NCBI GenBank assembly: GCA_965220415.1
Contig: OZ244829.1
Span: 2,799,483 to 2,863,482, forward strand
Reading direction: 5' to 3'
Source of the DNA: Candidatus Poribacteria bacterium
GTDB taxonomy: Bacteria; Poribacteria; WGA-4E; JAJDTR01
DNA: 64,000 bases
Part shown: in pieces, positions 272-56,126 of the stretch
How positions within the stretch are numbered: the first letter of the stretch is position 1
How the letters are laid out: every line of letters starts with the position of its first letter
Notes under the pieces: model-generated
Told to the model about the DNA's origin: nothing
What the model saw: the letters and a program-made list of their open reading frames with translations, nothing else
Databases searched by the model: none
Position numbers and translations under genes: made by a program

Positions 272-296
272 GTCGCGACCTGGAGATCGCTCCTAC
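272..296. repeat. REP family-1 element (GTCGCGAyyyGGAGATCGCTCCTAC; hairpin GCGAT-N6-ATCGC plus terminal CCTAC/GTAGG)
   Basis: Same ~25-nt imperfect palindrome recurs at 28059, 29020-29335, 48518, 49785, 51512, 54804 and 57750. Confidence 0.7.
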
Positions 297-4719: not shown

Positions 4720-6990
4720 ATGAAAAGACACCTGTTTTTCGTAGTTTGCTTTATATTCTTGTCTGCTCTGTTTCTACCGAGCAGTTTTTCCCAAGATATT
4801 ACTCAGTGGGGGTTGCCCGCGGGCGCCAGAGCACGTCTCGGTAAGGGGGCGGTATCTGAAATCGCGTATTCGCCAGATGGTACGCGACTCGCGGTCGGGA
4901 GTAGCGTCGGTATTTGGCTCTATGATGCGGCTACCGGTACCGAAGTCAACCTTCTCACGGGGCATACATCATCGATAAGATCCATAGCGTTCTCGCCGGA
5001 TGGATTGACGCTTGCCAGTGGAAGTAGGGACAACACGATTCGATTGTGGGATGTTCGCACCGCTCGGCACCTACACATCCTGGAAGGGCATACGGATTTG
5101 GTCGAATCCGTCACGTTCTCACCCGACGGATTAACGATTGCCAGCGGAAGTTTTGACGGCAGCGTTCGACTATGGGATGTTCGCACTGGAGAAGGGCTGA
5201 AAATTCTTGAAGAACACCCGAATACGGTCAATTCCGTAGTGTTCGCGCCCCATGGATTAACGATTGCCAGCGCGAGTAATGAGGAGATTCGGCTATGGGA
5301 TGTGCGTACTGGGGAATTAAAGCAAATTCTCCATGGTCATCGGAGTACTGTCAATTCCATGGCTTTCTCGCGTGATGGGTTGAGGCTTGCGAGCGGAGAA
5401 AGTTACGACACGATCTGGTTGTGGGATGTTCGCACCGGGGCAGCCATGCATACCCTTGAGGGGCATTGGCGTTCGGTCAATTCGGTGGCGTTCTCGCCCG
5501 ATGGATTGACGATTGCCAGTGGAAGCGGGGACGCTATCAACGATGTCCCCGACAATACGGTCCGTCTGTGGGATGCCCGCTCTGGAGAAGCCCTGCAGAT
5601 TCTTGAGGGACATACGGCTCCGGTCGTATCGGTAGTGTTTTCGCCCGATGGATTAACACTCGCCAGCGCGAGCTGGGACGACACGATTCAGTTCTGGAAT
5701 GCCAACACTGGTGAACGCCTACACACGCTTTCTGGACATACGGGCGGAATTCGTTCCATGGTTTTCTCGCCAGATGGACTGACGCTTGCCAGTGCGGGGA
5801 GTTTCGGCAACACGATTCAGTTGTGGGATATCCACGATGGGAGGTATTCTCAGACCATTTCAGGGCATACAGGAGATGTTTATTCCATAGATTTCTCGCC
5901 TGACGGATTTACGCTTGCCAGTGGGAGTACTGATAATACGATTAGACTGTGGAATGTCTATACCGGCCGACACCTGCAAACCTTCGAAGGACATACGAAC
6001 TATGTCTATTCCGTAGCATTTTCCCCGGACGGAACCATGCTTGCTAGTGGCGGAGGTTGGCCAGACTACTCAATCCATTTGTGGGATGCTCGCGCCGGAG
6101 ATCGCCTGCAGACCCTTGAGGGACATATAGGGGAGATTTGGACTGTGGCGTTTTCTCCGGACGGATCACAGTTAGCCAGTGGAAGTGCGGACAGCACGAT
6201 TTGCTTGTGGGATGCCGGCACTGGTGCCCCTCTACGAACCCTTGAGGGGCATACGGGTACGGTCTATACTGTAACGTACTCGCCAGACGGGAGCACACTC
6301 GCCAGTGGAAGTGAGGACTACGCGGTTCGTTTGTGGGAAGTCCGCACTGGGAATCATCTACGAACCCTTGAGGGGCATACGGGTACGGTCCGTTCTGTAG
6401 CGTTTTCGCCCGATGGGTACACGCTTGTAAGTGGTGGAAGTTGGGACAATACGATTCGTTTGTGGGATACCCGAACTAGTGAAGGCTTGCAGGTCCTTGA
6501 AGGAAATACGGGTTATGTCACCTCTGTTGCATTCTCCCCTAACGGGCGCACGCTTGTTAGCGGGAGTTGGGGTTCAGCGATACTACTGTGGGATCTCAGG
6601 CGTGCCATGACTTGGGGAAGTATTAAGCGTGCAGTGGTCGCGGATGGGACTAGACATCCACGAGAGCTTGCTTCCTCCGTCGCTGATTCGACGCTGATGA
6701 CAACGGCGCTTCTGCCGAATTACCCCAATCCGTTCAATCCGGAGACGTGGATACCGTATCAGTTGAAGGAGGCGGCGGATGTCAGACTGACAGTCTATGA
6801 CGTGCACGGTCGGGTGGTTCGGACGTTGGCGGTCGGCTATCAGCCAGCGGGGGTGTATCGGAGCCGGGATCGCGCGGCGTATTGGGACGGACGGAATGAG
6901 CGCGGCGAATCTGTTGCAGCGGGCGTGTATTTTTGCACGCTCGCGGCGGGAGATTTTAGGGCGAGTCGCAGGATGTTGGTCGGTAAGTAG
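4720..6990 (+). CDS. Secreted WD40 beta-propeller repeat protein with a T9SS C-terminal sorting domain (Por_Secre_tail type)
   Basis: Signal peptide MKRHLFFVVCFIFLSALFLPSSFSQ. About 14 WD40 units. C-terminal NYPNPFNPETWIPYQL...YFCTLAAGDF motif. N-terminal ~45 aa after the signal are homologous to 654-2843. Confidence 0.85.
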   Translation: MKRHLFFVVCFIFLSALFLPSSFSQDITQWGLPAGARARLGKGAVSEIAYSPDGTRLAVGSSVGIWLYDAATGTEVNLLTGHTSSIRSIAFSPDGLTLASGSRDNTIRLWDVRTARHLHILEGHTDLVESVTFSPDGLTIASGSFDGSVRLWDVRTGEGLKILEEHPNTVNSVVFAPHGLTIASASNEEIRLWDVRTGELKQILHGHRSTVNSMAFSRDGLRLASGESYDTIWLWDVRTGAAMHTLEGHWRSVNSVAFSPDGLTIASGSGDAINDVPDNTVRLWDARSGEALQILEGHTAPVVSVVFSPDGLTLASASWDDTIQFWNANTGERLHTLSGHTGGIRSMVFSPDGLTLASAGSFGNTIQLWDIHDGRYSQTISGHTGDVYSIDFSPDGFTLASGSTDNTIRLWNVYTGRHLQTFEGHTNYVYSVAFSPDGTMLASGGGWPDYSIHLWDARAGDRLQTLEGHIGEIWTVAFSPDGSQLASGSADSTICLWDAGTGAPLRTLEGHTGTVYTVTYSPDGSTLASGSEDYAVRLWEVRTGNHLRTLEGHTGTVRSVAFSPDGYTLVSGGSWDNTIRLWDTRTSEGLQVLEGNTGYVTSVAFSPNGRTLVSGSWGSAILLWDLRRAMTWGSIKRAVVADGTRHPRELASSVADSTLMTTALLPNYPNPFNPETWIPYQLKEAADVRLTVYDVHGRVVRTLAVGYQPAGVYRSRDRAAYWDGRNERGESVAAGVYFCTLAAGDFRASRRMLVGK

Positions 6991-7087: not shown

Positions 7088-7109
7088 TGGTGCGCAATGC
7101 GCACCCTAC
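7088..7109. repeat. REP family-4 variant (GGTGCGCAaTGCGCACCCTAC)
   Basis: GC hairpin plus CCTAC; a sister copy lies at 12024-12046. Confidence 0.6.
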
Positions 7110-7413
7110 AGACTTGGAAATATACATATCGCGCGCTTAATGTTCAGTCGTTTGATCTCCTGCACAAAATCTGAACGATAATCCCGACTGTTGCACGATG
7201 CAGGGCACGGAAAACGACAATCCTGCCCTATCCGGTACGCTCAGTGAACGTACTTCGTCGAAATCTCCCATAAAATTGGACTTTCACTGATGGCACGTTC
7301 CTTGCTCTCCCTTTTGACTAATCCAACTAACAATCATCAAACCACGGACGGTGTGGAAAGGAATCTTCCATCCTTACCCCCTTCCATCCAATCTTAAACT
7401 CGGAGGACACATT

Positions 7414-11662: not shown

Positions 11663-11834
11663 GCAAGTCAGTGAGGGAAAGTGTTTGGTGGCTAGTGAGC
11701 AGTGATTAGTCTCCGTCGAGTTTCACCATGCTTTGCGAAAGGTTGGACACGATTGAGCATTGGTATTAGGTGGAACGCCGCACGATTTTGGTTGGGTAGC
11801 TTAACCCAAGCTACCGGCTGCAAGATATGGTGAT

Positions 11835-11951: not shown

Positions 11952-12046
11952 GGAAGATCTCTATCAGGATCTCTATCTCGCTTCCTATCCAGTCGCTTGA
12001 TCCCCGCAGGGGCTTTCAAAGGCTGGTGCGCAGTGCGCACCCTACA
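11952..12046. repeat. REP family-2 cluster plus REP family-4 variant
   Basis: Contains gggaagatctctatcaggatctctatctcgcttcctatccagtcgcttgatc and ggtgcgcagtgcgcaccctac. Confidence 0.65.
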
Positions 12047-19677: not shown

Positions 19678-21051
19678 TCATGGCAACAACCCGTCCGGCG
19701 CTTCGATCAGCCCCTTCAACTCCCCGAGGAACCGAGCACACGGCGCGCCGTCAATCGCCCGATGGTCAAAGGTGAGAACCAACGTCCCGATATCCCGCGC
19801 CACAATCGACTCTCCCGCGAACACGGCAACCCGCCGCACGCGCCCCACACCGAGAATCGCGCACTGCGGCGGATTGAGCACCGGCGTGAACCAGTCCACG
19901 CCAAGCCCGCCGAGGTTGGTGACGGTGAACGTGCCGTCCGCATAATCGTCAACTCGCAGCTTCCCCTCGCGCGCACGCTCCGCAAGCGACCGCACCTGCG
20001 TTGCAATCTCCACGATGCCGAGTGCGTCGGCGCCTCGGATAACCGGCACCACCAAGCCGTCCGGGATGTCGACCGCGACGCCCAAGTTGACATCACGATA
20101 CTGGTGCACCGCCCCGTCAATCAGCGCCGCGTTGAGCCGGGGATGCGCTTTCAACGCCTCGGCGGTGGCTTTCAGCACAAAGTCGTTGATTGTTGGAGCC
20201 ACGCCGTGGGTTTGGCGCCATGCCTCTTCGTTCACCCCGCGAAGGTTTAGGATGGCGCTGAAATCGACTTCGATGCCCTCCGTAACGTGCGGCGCTTGCG
20301 ACCAAATCGTGCCGAGCCGTTCTGCGGTCGTGCGGCGGATGCCGCTAAGCGGAGTGACTTCAACCTCTGATGTTGGTTTCTCGTCAGCCGGTTTTTCCGG
20401 ACGCGCCGCGCCGGTGTCGATAGCGCGTTGCACATCCTCCTTGGTCACCCGTCCGCCAGGACCCGTGCCAGCGAGCGATTCGGCATCTATATTGTGCCGT
20501 TCCGCGAGCCGCTGTGCCACCGGCGTCACACGCGACCCCGAAGGTTTATCTGCCATCGAACTTCTGGATTGCTCCACGGTGCTGGCTGGAGTCTCTTGTG
20601 CAGCCTTTGCCGGCGCCGCCCCGCCCGAGTCGATGGCGCGCTGTACATCCTCCTTCGTCACCCGTCCGCCCGGTCCAGTGCCGGCGAGCGCCTCGGCGTC
20701 TATATTGTGCCGTTGCGCGAGTCGCAGCGCCACCGGAGTCGCACGCGACTCCGCAGGCTGAGCGGCGGCTGGGGTTTTGGGGGCAGCCGCGGGGGCGTCC
20801 GGCACCGCCTCGCCCTCCTCGCCAATCCACGCCAAGGTTTCGCCGACATCGTACTCGCCATCGGCTTGGCCCACGATGCGCAGCAGCACGCCGCTCACCG
20901 GCGACTCCACCTCGACGACAGTTTTGTCTGTCTCAATCGAAACCAGGGGTTGCCCCTCTTCAATTCTGCTCCCTTCGGCGATGTGCCACTCGACGACGCG
21001 GCCCGTTTCCATGGTGTGACCAAACGCCGCTAGACGGAACTGTACTGCCAT
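19678..21051 (-). CDS. Dihydrolipoamide acyltransferase (E2 component of a 2-oxoacid / pyruvate / acetoin dehydrogenase complex)
   Basis: N-terminal lipoyl domain (ETDKTVVEVESP). Two tandem peripheral-subunit-binding domains (TPVA.RLA.RHNIDAE.LAGTGPGGRVTKEDV). C-terminal catalytic domain with DHRAIDGA. Confidence 0.9.
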   Translation of the reverse strand: MAVQFRLAAFGHTMETGRVVEWHIAEGSRIEEGQPLVSIETDKTVVEVESPVSGVLLRIVGQADGEYDVGETLAWIGEEGEAVPDAPAAAPKTPAAAQPAESRATPVALRLAQRHNIDAEALAGTGPGGRVTKEDVQRAIDSGGAAPAKAAQETPASTVEQSRSSMADKPSGSRVTPVAQRLAERHNIDAESLAGTGPGGRVTKEDVQRAIDTGAARPEKPADEKPTSEVEVTPLSGIRRTTAERLGTIWSQAPHVTEGIEVDFSAILNLRGVNEEAWRQTHGVAPTINDFVLKATAEALKAHPRLNAALIDGAVHQYRDVNLGVAVDIPDGLVVPVIRGADALGIVEIATQVRSLAERAREGKLRVDDYADGTFTVTNLGGLGVDWFTPVLNPPQCAILGVGRVRRVAVFAGESIVARDIGTLVLTFDHRAIDGAPCARFLGELKGLIEAPDGLLP

Positions 21052-21100
21052 GACTTCTCCTTTCCTGCGATGCGCATAGATGCGATGTCGGAAAATCCTC

Positions 21101-22072
21101 CTACGCCATTACACGGTTGACCGCCTCGGTGATATTGGGAACTTCGGGCACCACGTGCTTCACGAGCTCCGAGCTAAACGGCATCGGCACATGCGGACTG
21201 CCGATTCGCGTGACCGGCGCCTTGAGCGACGCAAAGCAATTCTCGCCAATCATCGCCGCAATCTCGGAAACCGCCCCGGCAAAACTGGAGTCCTCGCCAC
21301 ACACCACGGCATGACCCGTCCGATTCACCGACTCGCAGATGGTTTCGGTATCCAGCGGCGACAGCGATCTCACATCGACGACCTCGACATCGTAGCCGTC
21401 ATCCTCCAGCAACACCGCCGCTTCCAACGACTTCTGCACCATGGGTCCTATGGCGACGATGGTCGCGTCTTCGCCCTCACGGCTGATATCCGCTTTGCCG
21501 ATGGGCACGGTATGTTCCCCGTCCGGCACCTCCCCCCTGGACGTATAGATACGCTTGTACTCGAAAAACAGCACCGGGTCCGGGCTGCGTACCGCGGATT
21601 TGAGCAATCCTTTGGCGTCGCTCGGCGTTGATGGCACAACCACCTGCAAGCCGGGCACGTGCATAAACCACGATTCCATAATCTGCGAGTGCTGCGCCGC
21701 CAGCAATCGACCGACGCCGCACGGAAGTCGGATAACCATCGGAACGCTGGCTTGACCTCCGGTCATGTAGCGCATCTTCGCCGCTTGGTTAACCACTTCG
21801 TCCATGGCGCACGTCACAAAGTCCATGTACATAATCTCGACGACCGGACTCATTCCCGCCATGGCGGCGCCGACCCCCAATCCGACGATACCTGCCTCGG
21901 CAATCGGCGTCTCGAAGATGCGTTCCGGGAAGCGTTCCGCGATCCCGTCCGTCACCTTGTAGGGTCCGCCGTGCGTAATGACATCTTCCCCCATGACGAA
22001 CACGGATTCGTCACGCTCCATCTCCTCGTGCAGCGCCTCGCACAGCGCCCTGCTAAACGTCAACGTCTTCAT
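21101..22072 (-). CDS. 2-oxoacid dehydrogenase E1 component, beta subunit (transketolase-like)
   Basis: MKTLTFSRAL...ESVFVMGEDV...ETPIAEAGIVG signature. Start overlaps the E1alpha stop. Confidence 0.9.
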   Translation of the reverse strand: MKTLTFSRALCEALHEEMERDESVFVMGEDVITHGGPYKVTDGIAERFPERIFETPIAEAGIVGLGVGAAMAGMSPVVEIMYMDFVTCAMDEVVNQAAKMRYMTGGQASVPMVIRLPCGVGRLLAAQHSQIMESWFMHVPGLQVVVPSTPSDAKGLLKSAVRSPDPVLFFEYKRIYTSRGEVPDGEHTVPIGKADISREGEDATIVAIGPMVQKSLEAAVLLEDDGYDVEVVDVRSLSPLDTETICESVNRTGHAVVCGEDSSFAGAVSEIAAMIGENCFASLKAPVTRIGSPHVPMPFSSELVKHVVPEVPNITEAVNRVMA

Positions 22073-23052
22073 TATGCCACCTCCTGCTCGGGAGCGAGCA
22101 CGTCCGTGGTAACGTTGGCAACCGTCGGGTACGGACTCTCCTCGGCAAACTTCACCGCGTTCGCAATTTCGTCTTTGACCTCTTCCTGAATCGCTGCGTC
22201 CTCGTCATCGGACATCCAGCCCTTGTGGCTCATCACCGTGCGGAAAAGCGTAATCGGGTCGCGCTCCGTCTTCCACGAATCAACCTCATCGCTGGAACGG
22301 TACTGCTCCTCGTCGCCCAAGCTGTGCCCGTGGAAGCGATAGGTTTTCGCTTCGACCAACGTGGGACCGCCCCCGTTGCGGGCGCGTTCGACCGCCTGAC
22401 CAACCACCTCGTAGACCTCGACGATGTCCTGCCCGTCAATGGATACGCCGGGAATGGCATACGACCCCGCCATATCTGCGACCGAATCGAGAACAGCCAC
22501 GTTTGACCGTGGTACCCACTGCTGATACTGGTTATTCTCGCAGACGTAAATCACCGGCAGCTTCCACAACGCGCCGAACCCGATACCCTCGTGGAAGGTG
22601 CCACGCGCGGCGGCGCCGTCCCCGAAGAAACAGACCGACACCTGATCGGTTCCGCGCATCTTGCTGGCGAGCGCCGCGCCGGTGGCGGGCCCAATACCCG
22701 CGCCCACGATGCCGTTGGCGCCTAGCATGTTGAGCGAGAAATCGGCGATGTGCATCGAACCGCCCTTTCCGGCGCAGGTGCCCGTGGATTTGCCGAACAA
22801 CTCCGCCATCATCTCGTTCGGCTTGGCGCCCTTGGCGATGCAGTGCCCGTGACTGCGGTGCGTGCCCAACACATAATCGTCATCCCGCAAATTGCCGCAA
22901 ACACCGACCGCGACCGCCTCCTCGCCGCAATACATGTGGAGTGCTCCTACCACGCTGCCGAGACTCGTCTGGCGATGCGCCTCCTCCTCGAAAAGGCGAA
23001 TGCGCCACATATCTTTGTACATCTTCTTGCACAACTCAGGTGACAGTGCCAT
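22072..23052 (-). CDS. 2-oxoacid dehydrogenase E1 component, alpha subunit (TPP-binding)
   Basis: TPP motif GDGAAARG...ENNQY. Also YRFHGHSLGD. Confidence 0.9.
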   Translation of the reverse strand: MALSPELCKKMYKDMWRIRLFEEEAHRQTSLGSVVGALHMYCGEEAVAVGVCGNLRDDDYVLGTHRSHGHCIAKGAKPNEMMAELFGKSTGTCAGKGGSMHIADFSLNMLGANGIVGAGIGPATGAALASKMRGTDQVSVCFFGDGAAARGTFHEGIGFGALWKLPVIYVCENNQYQQWVPRSNVAVLDSVADMAGSYAIPGVSIDGQDIVEVYEVVGQAVERARNGGGPTLVEAKTYRFHGHSLGDEEQYRSSDEVDSWKTERDPITLFRTVMSHKGWMSDDEDAAIQEEVKDEIANAVKFAEESPYPTVANVTTDVLAPEQEVA

Positions 23053-23199
23053 AAATCAATCTCCTTGGAGTTGATAGTTGAATACGTCGTGAAATATCGT
23101 TTTGAAAGTCGCCGCGAAGAATCCAATTTCTTTGTAAATCACTTGTACCATTTTACGCAGTAGGCACTGTTCGGTCAAGGACAATCTCTGTATTGCTGT

Positions 23200-23288
23200 A
23201 GAAGCGATCAAACGAATGAACAATGACTGCGACAACCTTATGTAGGGTGGGATCAAGCGACTGAATAAGGAGCGCGATAGAGATCCCC
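23200..23288. repeat. REP family-2 element (reverse orientation)
   Basis: Contains gtagggtgggatcaagcgactgaataaggagcgcgatagagatcccc. Confidence 0.7.
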
Positions 23289-23350
23289 TGCCCACCAGCC
23301 TTTTTCAATCCGAACGGAAACAGAGAACCCCTTGCCCTGCGTGCTTTCCC

Positions 23351-23375
23351 GTAGGGGCGAGGTTCCCTCGTCCCC
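23351..23375. repeat. REP family-3 element (GTAGGGGCGAGGTTCCCTCGyCC)
   Basis: Hairpin GGGCGAGG-TTCC-CTCGtCC preceded by GTAGG. Family copies at 34541-34700 and 40430-40456. Confidence 0.65.
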
Positions 23376-23530
23376 CTCACAATCACACGTGCAACGCCGT
23401 ATCAACCGACTGCATATCGCGCGCGAAAGTAAATCCAGCGCCATAGCGATCTTTCTTGTCCCGCATCGGAGGGGCTCAATCGACCTTAATAATGCACTGC
23501 AAATATATAGAAATGGTATAATATTTCCAC

Positions 23531-24538
23531 ATGAATGATCTAGAACTCACTCATCTACTCGGTAAAGCCTTCGGGAAAACGGTAGAAATCCTTAATGTGG
23601 AAATTCTGCCCCGCGGCAACAGTGGCTTATTCAAAGCCCGAATCACCGGCAGCGCAAATCGCCGACGCTTCTCAGCCGTGGTAAAGGCTCGACAGGACAC
23701 AGCGGTTCATGGAGCGTTGTGGTACGCCAAGGACAGCCGAATCGCTGACCGTGAATACCACGTATACGAACTGTTGGAGCATCTCCGGGTGCCGCATGCG
23801 CGGATCCTAGCGCGATATTATGACGCGCCGGCGAGGTGGGCGCTCCTTATGGAAGATCTCTGCGAACGGTACGTGATGCTCGCCGACGATTACCGATTCA
23901 GCACGGTAGAGCAAGAGACTATCGCTAGCACCTATGCCACGATCCATAACGCTAGCCGTTCGGCGCCGCAATTGATGGTTGTGGCGGAAGATTTTTTGGC
24001 TCCTGAGGAAGGCTCACAGGTGCATGCTGGGTCTATCGAAAAAATGTGGGAGGTTTTAAGAGAGGCGCAAATCGGAGGGCATCGGCTCTCGCGGCAGGAC
24101 TTCTTGAATGCGTGTTCCGTTCTCTTTGAAGGTCGTGAGCGGTGGAAAGGGGAGTCACGGGTACTCGTCTATAATGATTTTCACCCAAGCAACGTTGCTT
24201 TGCCGAAGTTGGAACAGGAGTACGCGGTTCTGTTTGATTGGGAACTTGCCGGGATAGGTTTCCCCCAATTTGATTTGCAGAACTTTTGGACAGATCGCGA
24301 TGTCGACAGAGAACGGATCCTGAGCGTCTATCTCGACCACTCGAAAGGAATCGATTTCGACCGTTTCATGTCCGTCATGCCTTATGCGGAACTCTGCCGG
24401 CAGTTCTACACGCTTTGGCTGCTGTATCTCAAACTGGAGGCAGACCCCGGCGGCAAGCTACCGTCGTGGTTGAGATTGCATTCGGAGCGGCTGTTCAGTG
24501 GTGAACTGGCTAGGTTAGCAGGGGAAGTCTTGTTGTAA
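23531..24538 (+). CDS. Phosphotransferase-family kinase (aminoglycoside/choline-kinase-like APH fold)
   Basis: Catalytic loop VYNDFHPSNV (Brenner H.D....N motif). DFG-like LFDWELAGIGFPQFD. AT-rich upstream region with a TATAAT-like box. Confidence 0.65.
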   Translation: MNDLELTHLLGKAFGKTVEILNVEILPRGNSGLFKARITGSANRRRFSAVVKARQDTAVHGALWYAKDSRIADREYHVYELLEHLRVPHARILARYYDAPARWALLMEDLCERYVMLADDYRFSTVEQETIASTYATIHNASRSAPQLMVVAEDFLAPEEGSQVHAGSIEKMWEVLREAQIGGHRLSRQDFLNACSVLFEGRERWKGESRVLVYNDFHPSNVALPKLEQEYAVLFDWELAGIGFPQFDLQNFWTDRDVDRERILSVYLDHSKGIDFDRFMSVMPYAELCRQFYTLWLLYLKLEADPGGKLPSWLRLHSERLFSGELARLAGEVLL

Positions 24539-24873
24539 CATGCTAGTATCGCGCGGCAGAAGCCTTCTGCCATTCGGCAACAGGGCAATCGTCTATCGCC
24601 CATTTTCCCTCTTGCACAAAAAATGAACATTGGCGTTCACTTGTTGGATAGGAAAATATGAAACATCATTGCGTTTCCGTAACATATCGGAGAACAGTGC
24701 CGATGAAATTCGTGCGGTAGTGCTAATACAGGGCAGATTATAGACAAGGACAGCCTTGGTGCGTGATAGTTAGTGGCACACAACTTGCTTAAAGTAAAAC
24801 CAATAGTCATTTATACAATGCGGTGGGTTTGGACTTAACCAAGCTGTCACAAAGTAATAGAATGGAGAAAAAC

Positions 24874-26639: not shown

Positions 26640-26660
26640 GTAGGGTGGGCATTGCCCACC
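26640..26660. repeat. REP family-4 element (GTAGGGTGGGCATTGCCCACC)
   Basis: GTAGG plus hairpin GGTGGGCA-TTGCCCACC. Copies at 26984, 52639 and 11835. Confidence 0.65.
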
Positions 26661-26832
26661 AGCATAGGGATCAAGTTAAGCGTTTTGGGTCGCAAGTCAC
26701 GCGGTTTCTAATGTCTTAAACTGTTAATCGCCATGTAGACATGGGCGATGGAATACCAACCCATTCGTTGATGGGTGCACCACAGAAGATGACTCATGAC
26801 GCTGGTTTCCGTGGGGACCGGTGCGGTTGGAA

Positions 26833-27144: not shown

Positions 27145-28062
27145 ATGGCAGGACTGGAAACACGTAGGATGGGGCGCACCGAGATGATGCCCGCATCGCT
27201 TGGACTCGGCGCTGCATGGCTGGGTCAAGGCTCGGAACACGAGACGATAGAAGGGATTCATCGTGCGATTGATTTGGGCATCAACTACATCGACACCTAC
27301 CCCAGAGGGCAGGAAGATCGCTGGGGAAAAGCGTTGGAGGGCGGCTTGCGCCAAAAGGTCTACCTGCAAGCCAAGGTCAGTCCGCTTGAGAAAGACGGCA
27401 AGAAAGACTTCTCCGCTGCGACGACCCGCCGCAGCGTGGAGAATAGCCTCAAATACCTCAAGACGGACTATCTGGATTCCGTGTTAATTCACGATGCCAT
27501 CGACATTGAAGATCCGCTCGCTCCCGGTCATGCTCTGGACGAGCTGATAAAGATGAAAGAGGAGGGGTTCATCCGACACCTCGGTCTCGGCGTGCGTCAA
27601 CACGAGTTTCATCGACGCGCCATCGAAACCGGACATATCGACATTGTACTCACCTTTTTGGACTACACCCTGCTTGACCAATCGGTTGCGGAAACCACGC
27701 TTCCTCTGGCGCGGGAACATGATGTCGGAATAATCCTCGCCAGCCCGATGGCGATGGGCACACTCACCGGCGTGGAGCCGAATCAGGAGGATGAACTCCG
27801 CCGCGCGAGAAAAGAAAACCTGGACGCCAAGCCGCAAGCGCACGATATGTGGAAGTGGTGTCAAGCGCGGGGCGTGAACATCCGTCACTTGGCGGTGCAG
27901 TTCTGCCTCGCCGCACCGGTTGACGGCATTGTCATGTTCGGTCCAGCGGACAAACGCGAGGTCGAGGAGGGCTATGAAGCCGCCACCGCAGATGTGCCGC
28001 CCGAAATCTGGCACGACTTTGAAGCGGAATTCGGCGTCACCGCCCTCCACGAACTACGGTAG
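27145..28062 (+). CDS. Aldo/keto reductase family oxidoreductase
   Basis: AKR N-terminal region (RRMGRTEM...LGLGAAWLG). IDTYPRGQ and HDAIDIEDP motifs. Its stop codon TAG lies inside the first REP GTAGG. Confidence 0.85.
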   Translation: MAGLETRRMGRTEMMPASLGLGAAWLGQGSEHETIEGIHRAIDLGINYIDTYPRGQEDRWGKALEGGLRQKVYLQAKVSPLEKDGKKDFSAATTRRSVENSLKYLKTDYLDSVLIHDAIDIEDPLAPGHALDELIKMKEEGFIRHLGLGVRQHEFHRRAIETGHIDIVLTFLDYTLLDQSVAETTLPLAREHDVGIILASPMAMGTLTGVEPNQEDELRRARKENLDAKPQAHDMWKWCQARGVNIRHLAVQFCLAAPVDGIVMFGPADKREVEEGYEAATADVPPEIWHDFEAEFGVTALHELR

Positions 28063-28370
28063 GAGCGATTTCCAAATCGCGACATATCAACGGGAATTGA
28101 AGCGTCGGGAATCGGAATTCCCTCCTACAAAAGCGATTGTCTTTGCCGAAAGCAAATTCACACTTCCACGAACTACGGTAGGAGCGATCTCCGAATCGCG
28201 ACATATCGGCAGGAATTGGCGTGTCGGGAATCGGAATTCCCTCCTACAAAAGCGATTGTCTTTGCCGAAAGCAAATTCACACTTCCACGAACTACGGTAG
28301 GAGCGATCTCCGAATCGCGACATATCGGCAGGAGTTGGCGTGTCGGGAATCGGAGTTCCCTCCTACTGCA
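28048..28370. repeat. BIME-like tandem array of ~120-bp units, each holding two inverted REP family-1 hairpins (downstream side of the RAYT gene)
   Basis: About 2.7 copies of cacgaactacGGTAGGAGCGATCTCCGAATCGCGAC...GTCGGGAATCGGAATTCCCTCCTAC...aaattcacacttc. Confidence 0.85.
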
Positions 28371-28836
28371 TGTCGAATTTACACCGCCAATGAGGATAAT
28401 CCTGTGGTTGTTTGACAAGTCCTTTTCTGACGGGGTTCTCGTAGCAGTAACGAATAATCTTATTCAAAGATTCATCGCGACGAATCCCGTGGTCATAATA
28501 GTTTGCTTGCCAGAGGGGACCGGTTCGCATGAGACGCGCGTTAATCTGGTTCGCCGTGAATCTCCTGAAGGATTGGACAAGCCTAGACAAGGTCTGTTTA
28601 TGTCCAAGTTGTAAGACTGCGTGGACATGGTCTGGCATAACCATTATGCACACCCATTGCAGACGTTCGTCGGTTTCGAGCCAGTCGAAGCATCTAAAAA
28701 TAATATCCGGAATGCCCGCAAGTTTCAGGACGGACGCTCTATTGTGGGTAGCGAACGTAACGAAGTAGTATGCACCAGGTATAGATTTTCTGCCTTTCCG
28801 CAACTGGCGGTGTCCCTTATTGGAAGTTTGGTTCAC
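28363..28836 (-). CDS. REP-associated tyrosine transposase (RAYT, IS200/IS605-like Y1 TnpA_REP)
   Basis: 157 aa. HuH motif in VMPDHVHAVLQ. Catalytic Tyr region LWQANYYDHGIRRDE. Size and flanking REP arrays are typical of RAYTs. Confidence 0.8.
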   Translation of the reverse strand: MNQTSNKGHRQLRKGRKSIPGAYYFVTFATHNRASVLKLAGIPDIIFRCFDWLETDERLQWVCIMVMPDHVHAVLQLGHKQTLSRLVQSFRRFTANQINARLMRTGPLWQANYYDHGIRRDESLNKIIRYCYENPVRKGLVKQPQDYPHWRCKFDMQ

Positions 28837-28959
28837 GTTCTTGCTCGCTCCGTGACATGATTCGGAAATAGGCTATGTGACATACGGTCGCGCCCTGTGT
28901 CCATCTGCGCGCTTCCACACATAACGACATATCGACGGGAATGGAAGCGTCGGGAATTG

Positions 28960-29400
28960 GGAGGAATCTCTATCGTTCTCGTTATCCTATCGGTTGATCC
29001 CTCGTACACGCGCTTTTGGTAGGAGCGATCTCCGAATCGCGACAGATTAGCGGGAACTGGAAAGTCGGGAATCGGAATTCCCTCCTACGGGAGATTTTTG
29101 TGTGTGTCAAACGTAATTTTCAAATCCGCAAACCACGGTAGGAGCGATCTCCAAATCGCGACATATCAACGGGAACTGGAGAGTCGGGAATCGGAATTCC
29201 CTCCTACGGGAAGTTTTTGTTTGTTGCCAAACGTAATTTGCACGTCCGCAAACCACGGTGGGAGCGATCTCCGAATCGCGACGCATTGGCGGGAATGGAA
29301 GCGTCGCGATTCGGAGGGGAATCTCTATCGTGGTCGCTGTTCGCTCCCTTAATCCCTCTTACATCAATCGCGGTGCAATCGCTTGATGGAAAGGTATTTC
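28960..29400. repeat. Composite REP array (one family-2 unit plus three family-1 REP pairs) on the upstream side of the RAYT gene
   Basis: ggtaggagcgatctccgaatcgcgac...gtcgggaatcggaattccctcctac is repeated three times at ~120-bp spacing, with family-2 units at both ends. Confidence 0.8.
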
Positions 29401-29440
29401 CTCATCTTTCAAGGCGTTGATAACCGCGCTTCCAATCATG

Positions 29441-30310
29441 CTACCACGGCATGGTGCGCTTGGTGTATTCCCTGCCAATTTTGGCGGATTCTTCGCCTCC
29501 CGCTCCAATCATGACCCCCTCGTCAATCATCTCGGTGATGTCGTCCGGAGCCATCCGGTTCAAAAAGGCGATATTTACCGCGTCGCATGCCGCCTTGACC
29601 CGCGCTCGGGCGTTCGCCATAGGTTCGGGGTACGGCGCGTCGTGCGGCGGCGGCGATCCGAACGACATCCCCATGTCGGACGGTCCCCATTCCGCGTATG
29701 CGATGCCGGGCACGCTGGTGCTGGCTTCAACGTTGGAAAGCGCCCGCCGATTCTCGATCTTCAACCCCAACATTAACTCGCCCTTGGGATTCAACGGCCA
29801 CGGGTCCGCCAGTTGGAGGTACTCTTGCACCGATACCCCCCAGACATCCGCCGCTCTGCCCTGTCCACCCGAACCGCGGCGCCCGACATCCAGCCCCTCG
29901 CCGACGCCAATCGTCTGGAACGGGTAACGCGCCGATTCTACCAGCGCCTTCGCGGCGCCCGGAGTTTCCGCATGACAGAGCAGGATGCCGTGAACACCCG
30001 TCGCCAACACCTGCTTAATCATCCACGCATTGGCGCGTACCACATCCTCGTTCGTGCCGTCGGTCGGCAGCGTTACAATCACCGTCGGCGTCCGGTGTCC
30101 GCTCCGCGTCGGACCGCCCGCGGCGAGACCGCGCATGAACTCCTGGAGCGCGGGTACGTCATACACGCCGTGTTCCATTTCATACATGATATAGTCCGCC
30201 CATGTCCCGACGGCTTCGATGCCTCCCTCATAACTGCACTCCTTGGGGGACGTGTAGTAGAGCGGTTGTCCTTGTTCAAGCAACTCGATTGCACGATTGA
30301 TTCTTGCCAT
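29441..30310 (-). CDS. HpcH/HpaI-family aldolase (2-keto-3-deoxy acid aldolase / citrate-lyase-beta-like)
   Basis: Motifs LMLGLKIE and GIAYAEWGPSDMGMSFG fit the family pattern. Confidence 0.6.
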   Translation of the reverse strand: MARINRAIELLEQGQPLYYTSPKECSYEGGIEAVGTWADYIMYEMEHGVYDVPALQEFMRGLAAGGPTRSGHRTPTVIVTLPTDGTNEDVVRANAWMIKQVLATGVHGILLCHAETPGAAKALVESARYPFQTIGVGEGLDVGRRGSGGQGRAADVWGVSVQEYLQLADPWPLNPKGELMLGLKIENRRALSNVEASTSVPGIAYAEWGPSDMGMSFGSPPPHDAPYPEPMANARARVKAACDAVNIAFLNRMAPDDITEMIDEGVMIGAGGEESAKIGREYTKRTMPW

Positions 30311-34540: not shown

Positions 34541-34700
34541 CCGTAGGGGCGCGGTTACCGCGCCCTTTCCCTCACGATCACACACATAACTCGGGATTTG
34601 CTGTAGGGGCGAGGTTTCCTCGCCCTCTCCTTCATCATCGCACACATAACTCGGGAGTGCCCGTGTGGGCGTGGTTAACGCGCCCTCTCATTCGCGAAAG
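34541..34700. repeat. Three tandem ~60-bp units of REP family-3 (GTAGGGGCGnGGTTnCCnCGCCC + cacacataactcggga)
   Basis: Unit starts near 34543, 34603 and 34664. Confidence 0.75.
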
Positions 34701-34873: not shown

Positions 34874-34919
34874 GTACGCCAACCGTCTTTCAAGTTCGTA
34901 GTTCGTAGGTTGGGTTGAG

Positions 34920-35040
34920 CACAGCGAAACCCAACGACGTAAATCCTTTCATTCCCGCCTTCCATCCTGCCCCCTTCCACTCTTCCCATCTTCCATCCAT
35001 CCTCTCTTCCGCCCTTCCAATCCTACCCTACTCTGTTCGC
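34920..35040 (-). other. GGA-rich polypurine tract (minus-strand sense), about 12 GGA motifs in ~100 nt
   Basis: Plus strand reads ccttccatcctgcccccttccactcttcccatcttccatccatcc... Similar tracts at 38690-38760 and 52700-52830, each next to a REP. Confidence 0.3.
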
Positions 35041-40429: not shown

Positions 40430-40545
40430 GTAGGGGCGAGGTTCCCTCGCCCAACGGGTTGGGGGGATCTCTATGGGATTTCTATCGCAGTCATTGTACA
40501 TTCCTTTGATCCTTCCTTACCCAGTCAGTTGATCCCATCCCTACG
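40430..40545. repeat. REP family-3 element followed by a REP family-2 cluster
   Basis: gtaggggcgaggttccctcgccc, then ggggggatctctatgggatttctatcgcagtc...cagtcagttgatcccatccctac. Confidence 0.65.
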
Positions 40546-48500: not shown

Positions 48501-49682
48501 TTACACTGCAACAGGAGGTCGCGATTCGGAGATCGCTCCTACATGCTCGGGAGCCGGTCGTCCGCCAAGCTCATTCTTCTCCCAGAGTTGACCGAGGCTA
48601 TAATCCTCAAGCCAATTCTTCAGTTTCTCTCCATCCAGTCTGGTAAATTGCGTTGCTCCCTCCACGCGTTCAGTCACGAGCACATCTTCCGGCTCGAAAT
48701 GATCCAAGAGCAAGGAAGACTGAGTGGCGACGACAATCTGGGTATCCACGGAAACCTGCTTGATGAGGGCGGCAAGAATCGTGATTGCGGCGGGATGCAA
48801 TCCCAACTCCGGCTCGTCCAATAGAATCACCGAAGGGCGCAATTCTCTCGGTTGCAGCAATAATGTCGCTAAAGCGATAAACCGAAGCGAACCGTCAGAT
48901 AGTGACGCGGCATCAAAATAGTTGTCTGACCCCCGATGACGCCATTCAAGCCGAATCGTATCCTCGTTCAGCACACGCGGCTCTAAGAAAAAGTCGTCGA
49001 AAAACGGCGCAACGAGTTGTACCGTGCGTCGTATCATGTTGTACGAATCACCGTGTATTTCACGCAGATGATACAGGAATGCTGCGAGATTTGAGCTGTC
49101 GTGCCGCAAGAAACGATTGTCGTTTAGTGCCGTAGTTTTCTTTACGGGTGACGACGCGCTTGTGTCGTGGAAGTGGTACACTCGCCATTGAAGAAGGTGT
49201 TCTCGAACGTAAGGAATTGCGCTGGATTTGTCCTTTGAGTTGTAAATACCCGCCTCGCCGCCCCGCCCGCCGATCCCGTAATCTGTCGAATCGAATCCTT
49301 CGAAAATCTGCTCCTGTTTAACCGAAGTTCTAACCCCCTCACTAGAAGGAATTAATCTCTCCTTTGACGGAAACATGCCATCGGCATCGTTCGGCGCCAA
49401 CACTATATTGTACTCTCGCTTTTCATTCTCAAAACTGATTCCAAGATTTAGAAACTGAGTTTTCTTTGAACCGAAGTGAAGTATCTTGTCAGCACCGCCG
49501 GCCCTCATGACATAGTCTCGAAGTCCTCCTAAGCGCATAGCGTTAAGGAACGAGAAAACCTCCATGAAGTTCGACTTTCCGGCGCCGTTCGCACCAATCA
49601 AGACGTTGATTGGAAGGAGTTCCACGTCAGCAGATTTGATGCTCTTAAATCCTTTTACGGTAATCCAGTCAAGTGTAGACAT
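48501..49682 (-). CDS. AAA_21-type ATP-binding protein (OLD/AbiLi-like), standalone
   Basis: RBS gagagg upstream of ATG 49682. Walker A LIGANGAGKSN. Walker B ILLDEPELGLHP. The last ~12 codons run through a REP family-1 copy (...GAISESRP...). Confidence 0.75.
   Translation of the reverse strand: MSTLDWITVKGFKSIKSADVELLPINVLIGANGAGKSNFMEVFSFLNAMRLGGLRDYVMRAGGADKILHFGSKKTQFLNLGISFENEKREYNIVLAPNDADGMFPSKERLIPSSEGVRTSVKQEQIFEGFDSTDYGIGGRGGEAGIYNSKDKSSAIPYVREHLLQWRVYHFHDTSASSPVKKTTALNDNRFLRHDSSNLAAFLYHLREIHGDSYNMIRRTVQLVAPFFDDFFLEPRVLNEDTIRLEWRHRGSDNYFDAASLSDGSLRFIALATLLLQPRELRPSVILLDEPELGLHPAAITILAALIKQVSVDTQIVVATQSSLLLDHFEPEDVLVTERVEGATQFTRLDGEKLKNWLEDYSLGQLWEKNELGGRPAPEHVGAISESRPPVAV
48518..48542. 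repeat. REP family-1 element embedded in the 3' end of ATPase gene 48501-49682
   Basis: Sequence gtcgcgattcggagatcgctcctac. Confidence 0.7.
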
Positions 49683-49784: not shown

Positions 49785-49809
49785 GTCGCGACCTGGAGAT
49801 CGCTCCTAC
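49785..49809. repeat. REP family-1 element between the sulfatase stop and the ATPase-3 start
   Basis: Sequence gtcgcgacctggagatcgctcctac. Its CTAC (GTAG on the minus strand) provides the sulfatase TAG stop. Confidence 0.7.
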
Positions 49810-51404
49810 ATTTCCGGCTTCTCCCGCGACTCCAGAATATCCTTCCACGGCTGAACATGGCATCGATCCGTCCAATCATCGTGCAGCCCCCTCAACTCTT
49901 CGACGATGTCCGGACACTTACCGCTTAAATCTTCCAACTCGGTGCGGTCAGCTTCCATATCGTACAGTTCCCAATCGCCCGGATACTTCATGACCAGCTT
50001 CCAATTCTCCCGCCGCACCGCTTTGTTCCCCTCGTGCTCCCAATACAGCACACCTTTGCCGTTGTCCCGGTTATCGAAAACGGGCACCAAACTCGTGCCC
50101 TCCAGCGGATAAACCGGATTCCCATCGTTCTCTTTGGGATACGCCGCGCCAGAGACCTCGAGACACGTCGCCATCACGTCCGTCAACTGCCCCGGCTGAT
50201 GCCGAAACTCGCCCGCCGATGTAATGCGCTCGGGCCAATGCGCGATTAAAGGCGTGCTGATGCCGCCCTCATGCACCCAGTGCTTGTATTCGCGGAACGG
50301 CGTATTTGACAGGTTCGCCCACGGCACGCCGTAGCTTTGATACGTGGTTTCCGGTCCCGGCATAATCGCCGGGTCGTTGCCCTTACTGACCGGTGTCCCG
50401 TCGCGCGTCAATGGCGGTGAGACGGGACGATCTCGCCCGGTACGCGTGTTGGGCCCGCCCAACTCTTCGGCGCACCCACCGTTATCCGCCAAAAAAAGAA
50501 TCAGCGTGTTATCCCGTTGACCCGTGGCTTTCAACGTGCTGATGATCCGTCCAATCCCCTGATCCATGCGATCAATCTGCGCCGCGTACACTTCCATCCG
50601 CCGCTGATTCCATTCTTTGTGTTGCGCGTCTCCCCAAGGTGGCTGTGACGGATCCCGATCACTTAATTCCCAGCAATCCTCCAAGATTCCCATCTCCCGC
50701 ATACGCAGCAGGCGTTCCTCGCGCAGCGCATCCCAGCCGGCGGAGAACCGACCCTCATAACGCGCGATATCCTCCTCATGCGCATGCAGCGGCCAATGCG
50801 GCGACGTATAAGCGACATACGTGAAGAAGGGGTCGTCGGGCGATTTCGCATGATGGTCTCGGATGAAACCGGATGCTTCATCGCTAATCGCATCGGTCAA
50901 GAAGAAGCCGTCCGCGAGGTCGTCGTGCAAAACATGATCGTTGTCCCGCGTGAGCGTATGCGGCTGCCAGTAATTAGCACCGCCGCCGCGGAGACCGAAA
51001 TACCGGCCAAAACCCCGCTGGCACGGCCAGCTATGCTTTGGGCCTTCCGCCCCCAAGTGGCGCGAAATATGCCACTTGCCGCTCATATAGGTGCGATAAC
51101 CCGACCCTCCAAGCGCCTCGGCAATCGTCACGCAGCGATGATTCAAATCCCCGCGATAACCCTCCAATCCGTCGTCAACCATCATGTGTCCGACACCGGT
51201 TTGGTGAGGGTGCAACCCGGTCAACAACGACGCGCGCGACGGACAGCAACGCGCCGTGTTGTAGAACTGCGTGAATCGCAGTCCGCCGTTCGCCAGCTTG
51301 TCAAGGTTCGGCGTCCGCACCTCGCCGCCGTAGCAGCCGAGGTCGGAATAGCCCATGTCATCGTTCAGAATCAGCAGAATATTCGGTCGCTTCTCTTCGC
51401 TCAT
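49806..51404 (-). CDS. Arylsulfatase (formylglycine-dependent sulfatase family)
   Basis: Sulfatase signature CCPSRASLLTGLHPHQTG (C-x-P-x-R). N-terminal NILLILNDDMGYSDLGCYG. 532 aa. Confidence 0.9.
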   Translation of the reverse strand: MSEEKRPNILLILNDDMGYSDLGCYGGEVRTPNLDKLANGGLRFTQFYNTARCCPSRASLLTGLHPHQTGVGHMMVDDGLEGYRGDLNHRCVTIAEALGGSGYRTYMSGKWHISRHLGAEGPKHSWPCQRGFGRYFGLRGGGANYWQPHTLTRDNDHVLHDDLADGFFLTDAISDEASGFIRDHHAKSPDDPFFTYVAYTSPHWPLHAHEEDIARYEGRFSAGWDALREERLLRMREMGILEDCWELSDRDPSQPPWGDAQHKEWNQRRMEVYAAQIDRMDQGIGRIISTLKATGQRDNTLILFLADNGGCAEELGGPNTRTGRDRPVSPPLTRDGTPVSKGNDPAIMPGPETTYQSYGVPWANLSNTPFREYKHWVHEGGISTPLIAHWPERITSAGEFRHQPGQLTDVMATCLEVSGAAYPKENDGNPVYPLEGTSLVPVFDNRDNGKGVLYWEHEGNKAVRRENWKLVMKYPGDWELYDMEADRTELEDLSGKCPDIVEELRGLHDDWTDRCHVQPWKDILESREKPEM

Positions 51405-51486: not shown

Positions 51487-51536
51487 GAATTTCTCGGAAT
51501 CGCGACTCCGATTCCCAACAGGTCGCGATTCGGAGA
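51487..51536. repeat. Two REP family-1 units (one partial and inverted, one complete)
   Basis: Sequence ggaatcgcgactccgattccc..ggtcgcgattcggagatcgctcctac. Confidence 0.7.
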
Positions 51537-51564
51537 TCGCTCCTACGGGTGGCGAGAACAACAA

Positions 51565-54803: not shown

Positions 54804-54828
54804 GTAGGAGCAATCTCCTTATCGCGAC
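54804..54828. repeat. REP family-1 element (diverged)
   Basis: Sequence gtaggagcaatctccttatcgcgac. Confidence 0.55.
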
Positions 54829-55120: not shown

Positions 55121-55627
55121 ATGGTAAACACCCGAATTGATAACGATAAGGGTGCCGAGATTGTGCCCTTGATAGGCATCCCCCGTAAGTGGGCGAACCC
55201 TACCTTAAAGTGCTACTCGTTCATCTTTTTGGGATATACGATATGGGTCACGTATCAAGAGTTCGGCACCGCCGCCAAAACCCTCAAAGCAAAGTTGACA
55301 TTTCTGGTTCCGCATCTGGGCGCGTTTAGTGTCTTTGAAGCAATCACCATCATCGCGCTTATCCAAGTTTGGGATATTATTATGTATTTGACAAACAGAT
55401 TCAAAACCGATATTGAGAAGATTAAAGCCACAAGTGAAGCACGGGGTAGAGCCGAGGGCAAAGCCGCGGGTAGAGCCGAAGGTAAAGCTGAGGGTAAAGC
55501 CGAAGGTAAAGCCGAGGCGTTCCAAGTTTGGGCAGATTGGTACCATCGGCAAGAAAACGCAAGAGCGCAGGGAGTACCCTTTGACGAACCCCCACCTTCT
55601 CTGAACGGCGACAAGACCAAGGGATAG
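55121..55627 (+). CDS. Small 2-TM membrane protein with a C-terminal (E/R)GKAEG repeat tract
   Basis: Hydrophobic segments CYSFIFLGYTIWVTY and AFSVFEAITIIALIQVW. Seven EGKA/AGRA repeats. Tandem paralog directly downstream. Confidence 0.5.
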   Translation: MVNTRIDNDKGAEIVPLIGIPRKWANPTLKCYSFIFLGYTIWVTYQEFGTAAKTLKAKLTFLVPHLGAFSVFEAITIIALIQVWDIIMYLTNRFKTDIEKIKATSEARGRAEGKAAGRAEGKAEGKAEGKAEAFQVWADWYHRQENARAQGVPFDEPPPSLNGDKTKG

Positions 55628-55685
55628 CGTTTTAGGCGCTAGCCGGCGACATGCGTACATTGATGACGATAAGGGTGCCGAGATT

Positions 55686-56126
55686 GTGCCCTTGATAGGC
55701 ATCCCCCGTAAGTGGGCGAACCCTACCTTAAAGTGCTACTCGTTCATCTTTTTGGGATACACGATATGGGTTACGTATCAAGAGTTTGGCAGCGCCGCAA
55801 AAACCCTCAAGACAAAGTTGACATTTCTCGTTCCGCATCTGGGCGCGTTTAGTGTCTTTGAAGCAATCACCATCATCCCGCTTATCCAAGTTTGGGATGT
55901 TATTATGTATTTGACGAACAGATTCAAAACCGATATTGAGAAGATTAGAGCCACAAGTGAAGCACGGGGTAGAGCCGAAGGTAAAGCCGAGGGTAAGTTT
56001 GAGGGTAAAGCCGAGGCGTTCCAAGTTTGGGCAGATTGGTACCATCGGCAAGAAAACGCAAGAGCGCAGGGAGTACCCTTTGACGAACCCCCACCTTCTC
56101 TAAACGGCGACAAGACCAAGGGATAG
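55686..56126 (+). CDS. Tandem paralog of 55121-55627 (about 95% identical, shorter repeat tract). Start possibly shifted to GTG, or the gene is N-terminally disrupted
   Basis: The ATG homologous to that of copy 1 (55651) is out of frame because of a ~7-nt deletion. The in-frame homology IDDDKGAEIV precedes the first usable start codon. Confidence 0.45.
   Translation: MPLIGIPRKWANPTLKCYSFIFLGYTIWVTYQEFGSAAKTLKTKLTFLVPHLGAFSVFEAITIIPLIQVWDVIMYLTNRFKTDIEKIRATSEARGRAEGKAEGKFEGKAEAFQVWADWYHRQENARAQGVPFDEPPPSLNGDKTKG

Follow-up and report, generated by a model that had tools for sequence, protein, structure and literature searches.

What is the short gene at 28363..28836 (minus strand) in the 64-kb stretch of a Candidatus Poribacteria chromosome analysed here (the window), enclosed as it is on both sides by tandem arrays of palindromic repeats: the transposase of an ordinary mobile element, or a REP-associated tyrosine transposase (RAYT) standing among its own repetitive extragenic palindromic (REP) sequences? 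Candidatus Poribacteria is an uncultured lineage of sponge symbionts, and to our knowledge RAYT/REP systems have been characterised almost wholly in Proteobacteria. A literature search found no paper joining REPs, REP doublets forming hairpins (REPINs), RAYTs or IS200 with Poribacteria; the matches that Poribacteria and RAYT gave together seem to be spurious, and the one that was checked was due to the author name Raytselis. On the evidence set out below, it is highly probable that the locus consists of a RAYT (TnpA_REP), that is, a class-2 Y1 HuH single-strand DNA endonuclease, and of its cognate REPs, ordered in arrays that resemble bacterial interspersed mosaic elements (BIMEs). The RAYT/REP-BIME locus is canonical in form; the system is already known, and what is new is a member of it in a phylum for which the search found no description.

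The gene starts with GTG and its open reading frame (ORF) of 157 amino acids is intact. The initial annotation, made from the letters of the DNA, had placed the product in the TnpA_REP class, and profile searches agree with that placement. The NCBIfam equivalog model NF047646 (REP_Tyr_transpos) matched residues 13-150 over all 146 profile positions with 125.9 bits (cutoff 80), and Pfam Y1_Tnp matched with an E-value of 5.4e-10 (39.9 bits, cutoff 23), whereas the NCBIfam model for IS200 transposases (NF033573, transpos_IS200) reached 31.7 bits and fell under its cutoff of 55. The best sequence match in the PDB is 4er8, in which the E. coli TnpA_REP is in complex with a REP hairpin; for this enzyme an active site comprising Y115, H59-M60-H61, N119, H123 and E161 has been described (Messing et al., PMC3479197). 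When the two proteins are aligned, H70, H72, Y130 and N134 of the Poribacteria protein fall on H59, H61, Y115 and N119 of the E. coli enzyme. The HuH motif had thus been located correctly in DHVH by the initial annotation, as H70-V71-H72 aligns with H59/M60/H61. The other motif that it singled out, NYYDHGIRRDE, is likewise present and conserved, but the catalytic tyrosine assigned to it is not there: the NYYDH segment, with Y113/Y114, aligns with the E. coli motif WQPRFWEHAIR, and because of the alignment and the published active site the predicted catalytic residue is Y130, within IIRYCYENP.

The surroundings of Y130 also fit the assignment to class 2. A Y---NP signature is common to all class-2 TnpA_REP proteins (PMC6006769), and the segment Y130-C-Y-E-N134-P135 conforms to it and not to the Y---Q of class 1. 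A motif NP(L/V)(R/K)xG and a conserved N-terminal threonine have been described as specific to RAYTs (PMC2817692); the former is represented by NPVRKG after the Y130 motif and the latter by T27. Among 26 Poribacteria homologs with 54-92% identity, nearly all of them 157 amino acids long, H70, H72, Y130, Y132, N134, W109 and Y113 are invariant, and T27 and P135 are kept in at least 90%. Three cysteines, C63, C131 and C152, are invariant or nearly so in the same set, C131 lying between Y130 and Y132; they are candidates for a metal or redox site.

An AlphaFold (AF2) model was built on the 26 homologs, with a predicted local distance difference test (pLDDT) of 86 and a predicted template modelling (pTM) score of 0.80. 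The top Foldseek match of this model is again the E. coli enzyme (4er8_A), with template modelling (TM) scores of 0.73/0.70 and a root-mean-square deviation (rmsd) of 2.8 A over 142 columns, compared with TM scores of about 0.57 and rmsd values of 6-13 A for the TnpA proteins of IS200, IS608 and ISDra2. The predicted fold is thus nearest to that of the monomeric E. coli TnpA_REP, and in the model the helix that bears the tyrosine is placed as in the monomeric enzyme.

The repeats that enclose the gene were defined with Tandem Repeats Finder, which reported two arrays with a period of 119: one downstream of RAYT at 28046..28366 (2.7 copies x 119 bp, 95% matches, score 572) and one upstream at 29018..29315 (2.5 copies x 119 bp, 85% matches, score 440). 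In both, the unit consists of a hairpin sequence designated REP1, a 20-nt spacer, an inverted hairpin sequence designated REP2 and a 49-nt linker. The downstream array occupies the whole gap between RAYT and the convergent aldo/keto reductase gene (27145..28062, plus strand). The linker of the upstream array is a diverged form of the downstream one and units are 66-72% identical across the arrays, which places RAYT inside a single family of 119-bp units. Alternating REPs, conserved linkers and tandem reiteration (x2.7 and x2.5) are the features of BIMEs. The initial annotation had described 2.7 downstream units of about 120 bp, each with two inverted GTAG hairpins of about 25 nt, and this description stands, REP1 on the plus strand and REP2 on the minus strand being found in both arrays. 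Its three upstream units need to be recounted, since what is present there is two full units (29019-29137 and 29138-29257), a terminal unit (29258-29362) and a degenerate one.

Within the downstream array, REP1 lies on the plus strand at 28059..28083 (two mismatches) and, by 25-mer search, as exact copies at 28178..28202 and 28297..28321; REP2 lies on the minus strand at 28104..28128, at 28223..28247 (exact) and, with one mismatch and overlapping the RAYT stop codon, at 28342..28366. In the upstream array the same search placed REP1 on the plus strand at 29019..29043 (exact), at 29138..29162 (one mismatch) and, with a GTGG head, at 29258..29282, and exact copies of REP2 on the minus strand at 29064..29088 and 29183..29207. 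The terminal unit combines this GTGG-headed REP1 with an inverted partner (29303..29362, minus strand), a REP1-type hairpin whose right arm, CTCCGAATCGCGAC, is exact and which carries an insert of about 35 nt after the left arm. The degenerate unit adjoins the RAYT start at about 28904..29007 and contains a decayed REP1 remnant, a spacer and a REP2-type hairpin (28949-29007) that holds a module termed D, described further below. Scanning 27900-29500 for promoter and terminator consensus sequences gave nothing exceeding shuffled sequence.

A side observation concerns the ends of genes. The GTAG heads of REPs supply TAG stop codons to three genes in the window: the aldo/keto reductase gene (28059-28062), RAYT (28363-28366) and the ORF 49806..51404 on the minus strand (49806-49809). 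In the case of RAYT, the stop codon itself occupies 28363-28365, within the head of the REP2 at 28342-28366. The overlap of stop codon and REP is kept at three homologous loci (L167, L119 and L120), whose RAYT proteins have Q or R as their final residue; RAYT relatives that lack the overlap have a C-terminal E followed by TGA or TAA.

REP1 (GTAGGAGCGATCTCCGAATCGCGAC) has 12 matches in the window at up to three mismatches, and REP2 (GTAGGAGGGAATTCCGATTCCCGAC, on the opposite strand) has five, all within the two arrays, where shuffled sequences led to an expectation of 0.00 for each. The REP1 stem is GCGAT/ATCGC with a 6-nt loop, the REP2 stem is GGGAAT/ATTCCC with a 4-nt loop, and the two have in common a GTAGGA head, a TCCGA core and a GAC tail. 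Their differences fall at paired stem positions (C8-G21 in REP1 against G8-C21 in REP2, and T11-A18 against A11-T18), so that the stem has been kept through compensatory changes. As single-stranded DNA, the REP1-spacer-REP2 doublet forms a 70-nt imperfect hairpin of -20.3 kcal/mol, compared with -9.6 +/- 2.2 for shuffled sequences (z = -4.8), and it is a REPIN-type structure.

The initial annotation had made its reading depend on the presence of the hairpin family elsewhere in the genome, and the family does recur beyond the locus, both in the window and across Poribacteria genomes. Six REP1 sites lie elsewhere in the window, mostly as singlets at gene ends: a variant (GTAGGAGCGATCTCCAGGTCGCGAC) at 272..296, an exact copy at 48518..48542, a variant at 49785..49809 whose head provides the stop of ORF 49806..51404, an exact copy (51522-51546) that together with a partial inverted partner (51493-51506) spans 51493..51546, a variant with three mismatches at 54804..54828, and an exact copy at 57750..57774 beside D-bearing elements; all are on the minus strand except that at 54804..54828. 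The exact REP1 25-mer was then searched in one genome per GTDB species and counted in 8-kb blocks. At least 118 blocks, belonging to dozens of species-level Poribacteria metagenome-assembled genomes (MAGs), contain it; among the blocks listed, every record with a taxonomic label is Candidatus or uncultured Poribacteria, and a few contigs are labelled only 'uncultured bacterium' (MAGs from SRP109090). Within the listed blocks, doublets of REP1 and REP2 are found in both head-to-head and tail-to-tail orientation. No RAYT ortholog was found by tblastn in the 118 listed blocks that bear REP1 (935 kb of Poribacteria DNA), and these REP1 copies are therefore unlinked to the gene. Immediately before GTAG, 165 REP1 copies have C at -2 in 73% and T at -1 in 67%. 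Cleavage sites at CT have been reported for the E. coli TnpA_REP (PMC3479197), and by analogy the CT directly 5' of GTAG is a possible cleavage site. Apart from such interspersed copies, one Poribacteria chromosome (OZ250160.1; L031, 4066-4429) contains a tandem array with a period of about 38 bp in which about ten REP1 are directly repeated, several with the head GTCC and not GTAG.

The association between gene and repeats was followed through the relatives of RAYT. A protein database search yielded 348 RAYT homologs at E <= 1e-5; those with names belong to Candidatus Poribacteria or bear the label 'REP element-mobilizing transposase RayT', and the majority of homolog clusters are present on just one or two contigs. 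JGI metagenome contigs scanned with the protein contained only relatives of at most 40% identity and so were of no use for comparing flanks. The flanks were read in nine homolog contexts, and at all nine loci the gene has, as in the window, REPs in inverted orientation on both sides, with GTAG or GTGG heads. In the closest (L167, RAYT 92% identical) the REP1/REP2 units are the same, with fewer of them upstream. Homologs at 82, 79, 73 and 69% identity stand in unrelated neighbourhoods and still have REP1/REP2 on their flanks; at 66 and 64% identity the gene is bordered by GTAGGAGCGAGCTnTGCTCGCGAT arrays, at 58% by the REP GTAGGAGCGACCTCCTGGTCGCGAC, and at 55% by hairpins of the GTAGGCGGGGCA type. 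Across all the homologs that were read, the GTAGG head and a GC-rich stem are constant and the sequence of the stem varies. Diverged RAYT homologs carry diverged REPs, and the type of REP tracks the RAYT clade, a co-variation of the kind described by Nunvar et al. (PMC2817692). Taken with the profiles, the predicted fold, the catalytic residues and the dispersal of the REPs, this co-variation supports the canonical RAYT-REP association that the initial annotation had proposed. At the 79% homolog (L120, 4471-4706), the last ~22 RAYT codons and REP2 make up a 92-bp unit of which about 2.5 tandem copies lie downstream of the gene, and this indicates a REP-anchored duplication.

By analogy with the E. 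coli enzyme and with the IS200/IS605 transposases (IS608/ISDra2), RAYT would bind REP hairpins extruded on single-stranded DNA and read their GTAG foot. H70 and H72, with a metal ion, and Y130 would then cleave and rejoin DNA beside the hairpin, possibly at the CT before GTAG, and this reaction would spread and homogenise the REP and REPIN copies; the RAYT gene itself would stay in place as a single, vertically inherited copy. The tandem arrays probably lengthen and shorten through REP-to-REP recombination or slippage, because the number of units differs between the window and L167 and because of the 92-bp duplication in L120.

The alternative that survives best, and still an improbable one, is that RAYT is inactive on these REPs and that they are shaped by host recombination, slippage and selection for termination, mRNA stabilisation or translational attenuation at stop codons. 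Slippage or unequal recombination can indeed give rise to the 119-bp arrays, to the unit differences between the window and L167 and to the L120 duplication, and the overlap of REP heads with the stop codons of three genes agrees with a role in translation, since in E. coli REPs positioned at stop codons affect it. On the other side, protein length and all catalytic residues are invariant even in homologs with as little as 54% identity, which points to selection on catalysis. Moreover, an exact 25-mer is kept in dozens of species, whereas ordinary intergenic DNA cannot be aligned at about 90% coding identity: between the window segment 20476-24789 and a MAG contig of Candidatus Poribacteria (L022) identity is 87-90%, and the intergenic region there is unalignable. 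Such a contrast implies active homogenisation or spread. That REP sequence follows the RAYT clade also speaks against an idle enzyme.

Less probable still is that the gene encodes the transposase of an autonomous insertion sequence (IS) of the IS200/IS605 type, with the flanking hairpins as its ends and the whole unit mobile. The Pfam Y1_Tnp match and the fold held in common with the TnpA proteins of IS200, IS608 and ISDra2 would be expected of such an element, and so would the varied neighbours of the more distant homologs. The IS200 model, however, stays below its cutoff where the RAYT model far exceeds its own, the tyrosine motif is that of class 2, and the predicted fold fits the monomeric TnpA_REP much better. 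The 64-kb window contains one RAYT copy, its neighbours encode an aldo/keto reductase and an HpcH/HpaI aldolase, neither of which is tnpB, the clusters of homologs are confined for the most part to one or two contigs each, and the hairpins that would have to serve as ends are dispersed without the gene. The order HpcH - RAYT - aldo/keto reductase is also retained in L167, where protein identity to the window is 94% and 97% for the neighbours and 92% for RAYT; because of this common synteny and the similar identities, RAYT appears to have been vertically inherited at the locus. At the nucleotide level, RAYT is 94.7% and the neighbouring genes are 96.6% and 90.6% identical to L167, all below the 98.9% observed for the 180 nt 5' of the RAYT start (28837-29016, against L167 1690-1869), a segment that holds the degenerate D-bearing unit and may be a constrained regulatory region. 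A third possibility, that the arrays are a repeat of another type (CRISPR-like or a structured RNA cluster) lying beside a transposase gene by coincidence, has in its favour the regular 119-bp spacing and the short palindromic repeats and is rejected as next to impossible, as what separates the hairpins is repeated too (95% unit identity) and includes no unique spacers, Rfam gave no match in the window at gathering thresholds, and RAYT homologs in unrelated contexts have these hairpins on their flanks as well.

Several observations weigh against reading the locus as an active RAYT with its cognate REPs. The protein has K138 where the E. coli enzyme has H123, and its C-terminal tail is shorter (157 against 165 amino acids in total), so that metal coordination may differ from that of the E. 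coli TnpA_REP. No REP2 lies in the window outside the arrays that flank RAYT, the dispersed REP1 copies are mostly singlets and not REPIN doublets, and the window copies of REP1 are without the CT that usually precedes GTAG in other genomes. Finally, hairpin binding, the cleavage site and mobilisation are attributed to this RAYT by homology alone.

Among known systems, the TnpA_REP of E. coli K-12 (YafM/RayT; 4er8; Nunvar 2010, Ton-Hoang 2012, Messing 2012) is the best match in both PDB sequence and fold. The two have HuH, catalytic Tyr and Asn in equivalent positions and are associated with GTAG-headed REPs, and CT adjoins GTAG in most REP1 copies of the 165-copy set, although not in those of the window. 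In E. coli, yafM is enclosed by BIME-2, an arrangement described for roughly one in three RAYTs (PMC2817692); the Poribacteria gene likewise has arrays of alternately oriented REPs and linkers on either side. The differences, besides K138, the shorter C-terminus and the other phylum, are a sequence identity of only ~21%, DHVH in place of EHMH, and REPs of 25 nt with a 5-6-bp stem where those of E. coli are longer (~35 nt). The RAYT-REPIN system of Pseudomonas fluorescens SBW25 (Bertels group 3; subclass 2.5, Quentin et al. 2018) is similar in protein size (~151-157 amino acids), in the D-H-u-H and WQ motifs, in its short REPs, in having REP doublets as the repeated unit, and in a low-copy gene flanked by its own REPINs. 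Specifically, the motifs DH[LF]H, WQ and YI[VI]ANP and a length of ~151 amino acids in subclass 2.5/Bertels group 3 compare with DHVH, WQ, YCYENP and 157 amino acids in the window, and by motifs and size alone this RAYT would be nearest to that group. It differs from SBW25 and subclass 2.5 in having YCYENP, not YI[VI]ANP, and in that its doublet consists of two sequence types, REP1 and REP2, with compensatory stem differences. With the TnpA proteins of IS200/IS605 (IS608, ISDra2) it has in common the HuH/Y1 fold and presumably a hairpin-recognising single-strand DNA chemistry; the IS200 score under cutoff, the Y---NP motif, the modelled position of the tyrosine helix, the absence of an adjacent tnpB and the single copy in the window separate it from them.

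REP1 and REP2 are not the only hairpins with a GTAG head in the window. A family B, GTAGGGGCGAGGTTCCCTCGCCC, is present at 34543-34689 as a 60-bp tandem array (x2.5), at 23351-23375 and at 40430-40455; a family C, GTAGGGTG[GC]GCAyTGC[GC]CACC, at 26640-26665, 7091-7110 and 12020-12045; and a further family, GTAGGTTGGGTT...AACCCAAC, at 11800-11822 and 34905-34935. At least three further GTAG hairpin families suggest that the genome has several RAYT/REP systems, with only one RAYT in the window.

In several REP families with a GTAG head, both of this genome and of other Poribacteria, hairpin loops are occupied by the module D, a sequence of 35-38 nt with the consensus ATCAAGCGACTGAATAAGGAGCGCGATAGAGATCC, composed of sub-repeats of two kinds, at times in more than one copy. 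By nhmmer, the window yielded 23 hits and about 970 kb of DNA from other Poribacteria yielded 51, with D also found in L024, L082, L086, L053, L043 and others. Start coordinates in the window, on both strands, are 2993, 9560, 9677, 11967, 13661, 19558, 23252, 26835, 28966, 30427, 35064, 35960, 40476, 57793, 57836, 59236, 59272, 62125 and 62165. The full-length hits that were read lie outside the long ORFs of a crude ORF map, save for one ORF that has two of them at its 5' end, and their orientation relative to genes is mixed. D often stands directly after the GTAGG head, in hairpins of REP families B, C, E, REP1 and REP2; on the upstream side of RAYT, D or D-like inserts are present in the hairpins 28949-29007 and 29303-29362, each just past the left arm. 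Filled and empty forms can be compared in REP-C, where the empty hairpin is GTAGGGTGGG-CATT-GCCCACC and the filled ones are GTAGGGTGGG[D]GCCCACC (window 23242) and GTAGGGTGCG[D]GCGCACC (L082), and the same contrast is seen in the family GCCCCAGAGGGG-CGG-AAGGTGT, in the CCCCAGAGGGG hairpin family and in REP-B. D also occurs without a GTAG head as well as in several unrelated REP families, and around all D copies complementary flanks are no longer than in the control (mean longest run 4.0 against 3.7, not significant), so that nesting within a hairpin is a valid description for a subset of D only. An orthologous site filled in one genome and empty in another was sought between window 20476-24789 and L022 and none was found, the intergenic region there being unalignable.

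It is conceivable, but doubtful, that D is a second-order element that colonises REP hairpins, either as a miniature insertion cassette targeting REP loops, possibly moved by a RAYT-type enzyme, or as a docking module for a nucleoid protein. In E. coli, BIME-1 (RIP) elements consist of inverted REPs around an 'L' motif that binds the integration host factor (IHF). D resembles them in being a conserved module of ~35 nt centred in a REP palindrome, and its start, ATCAAnnnnCTG, is close, in an imperfect match, to what we take to be the IHF core, WATCAANNNNTTR. It differs from them in lying inside a single REP hairpin and not between two REPs, and its match to IHF is imperfect and putative.

Other repeats in the window are of a different nature. 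WD40 beta-propeller proteins (747 and 756 amino acids, with 126-bp coding repeats) and a protein with leucine-rich repeat (LRR), Big_1 and dockerin domains are encoded at 600-2843, 4720-6990 and 62359-64000; eukaryote-like repeat proteins of this sort fit the genome of a sponge symbiont. Two adjacent segments of ~300 bp (55136-55435 and 55659-55958) share 96% identity, and a 12-bp tandem repeat, GGGTAAAGCCGA, comes after each of them (55444-55517 and 55946-56016); the segments overlap the small ORFs 55121..55627 and 55686..56126. The GC content of the window is 54.3%, which does not bear out the 'high-GC' genome of the initial annotation.

The locus extends the canonical RAYT/REP system to Candidatus Poribacteria. 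For annotation, it means that 'transposase' calls of this kind in Poribacteria should read RAYT; the NCBI model would give the gene the right name, and relatives already bear it at JGI. REPs make up many of the intergenic regions of Poribacteria and some of the stop codons. An invariant 25-nt REP in dozens of species-level MAGs, together with RAYT clades that have REPs of their own, makes up a data set for the long-term co-evolution of RAYTs and REPINs and for the turnover of repeats in symbionts.

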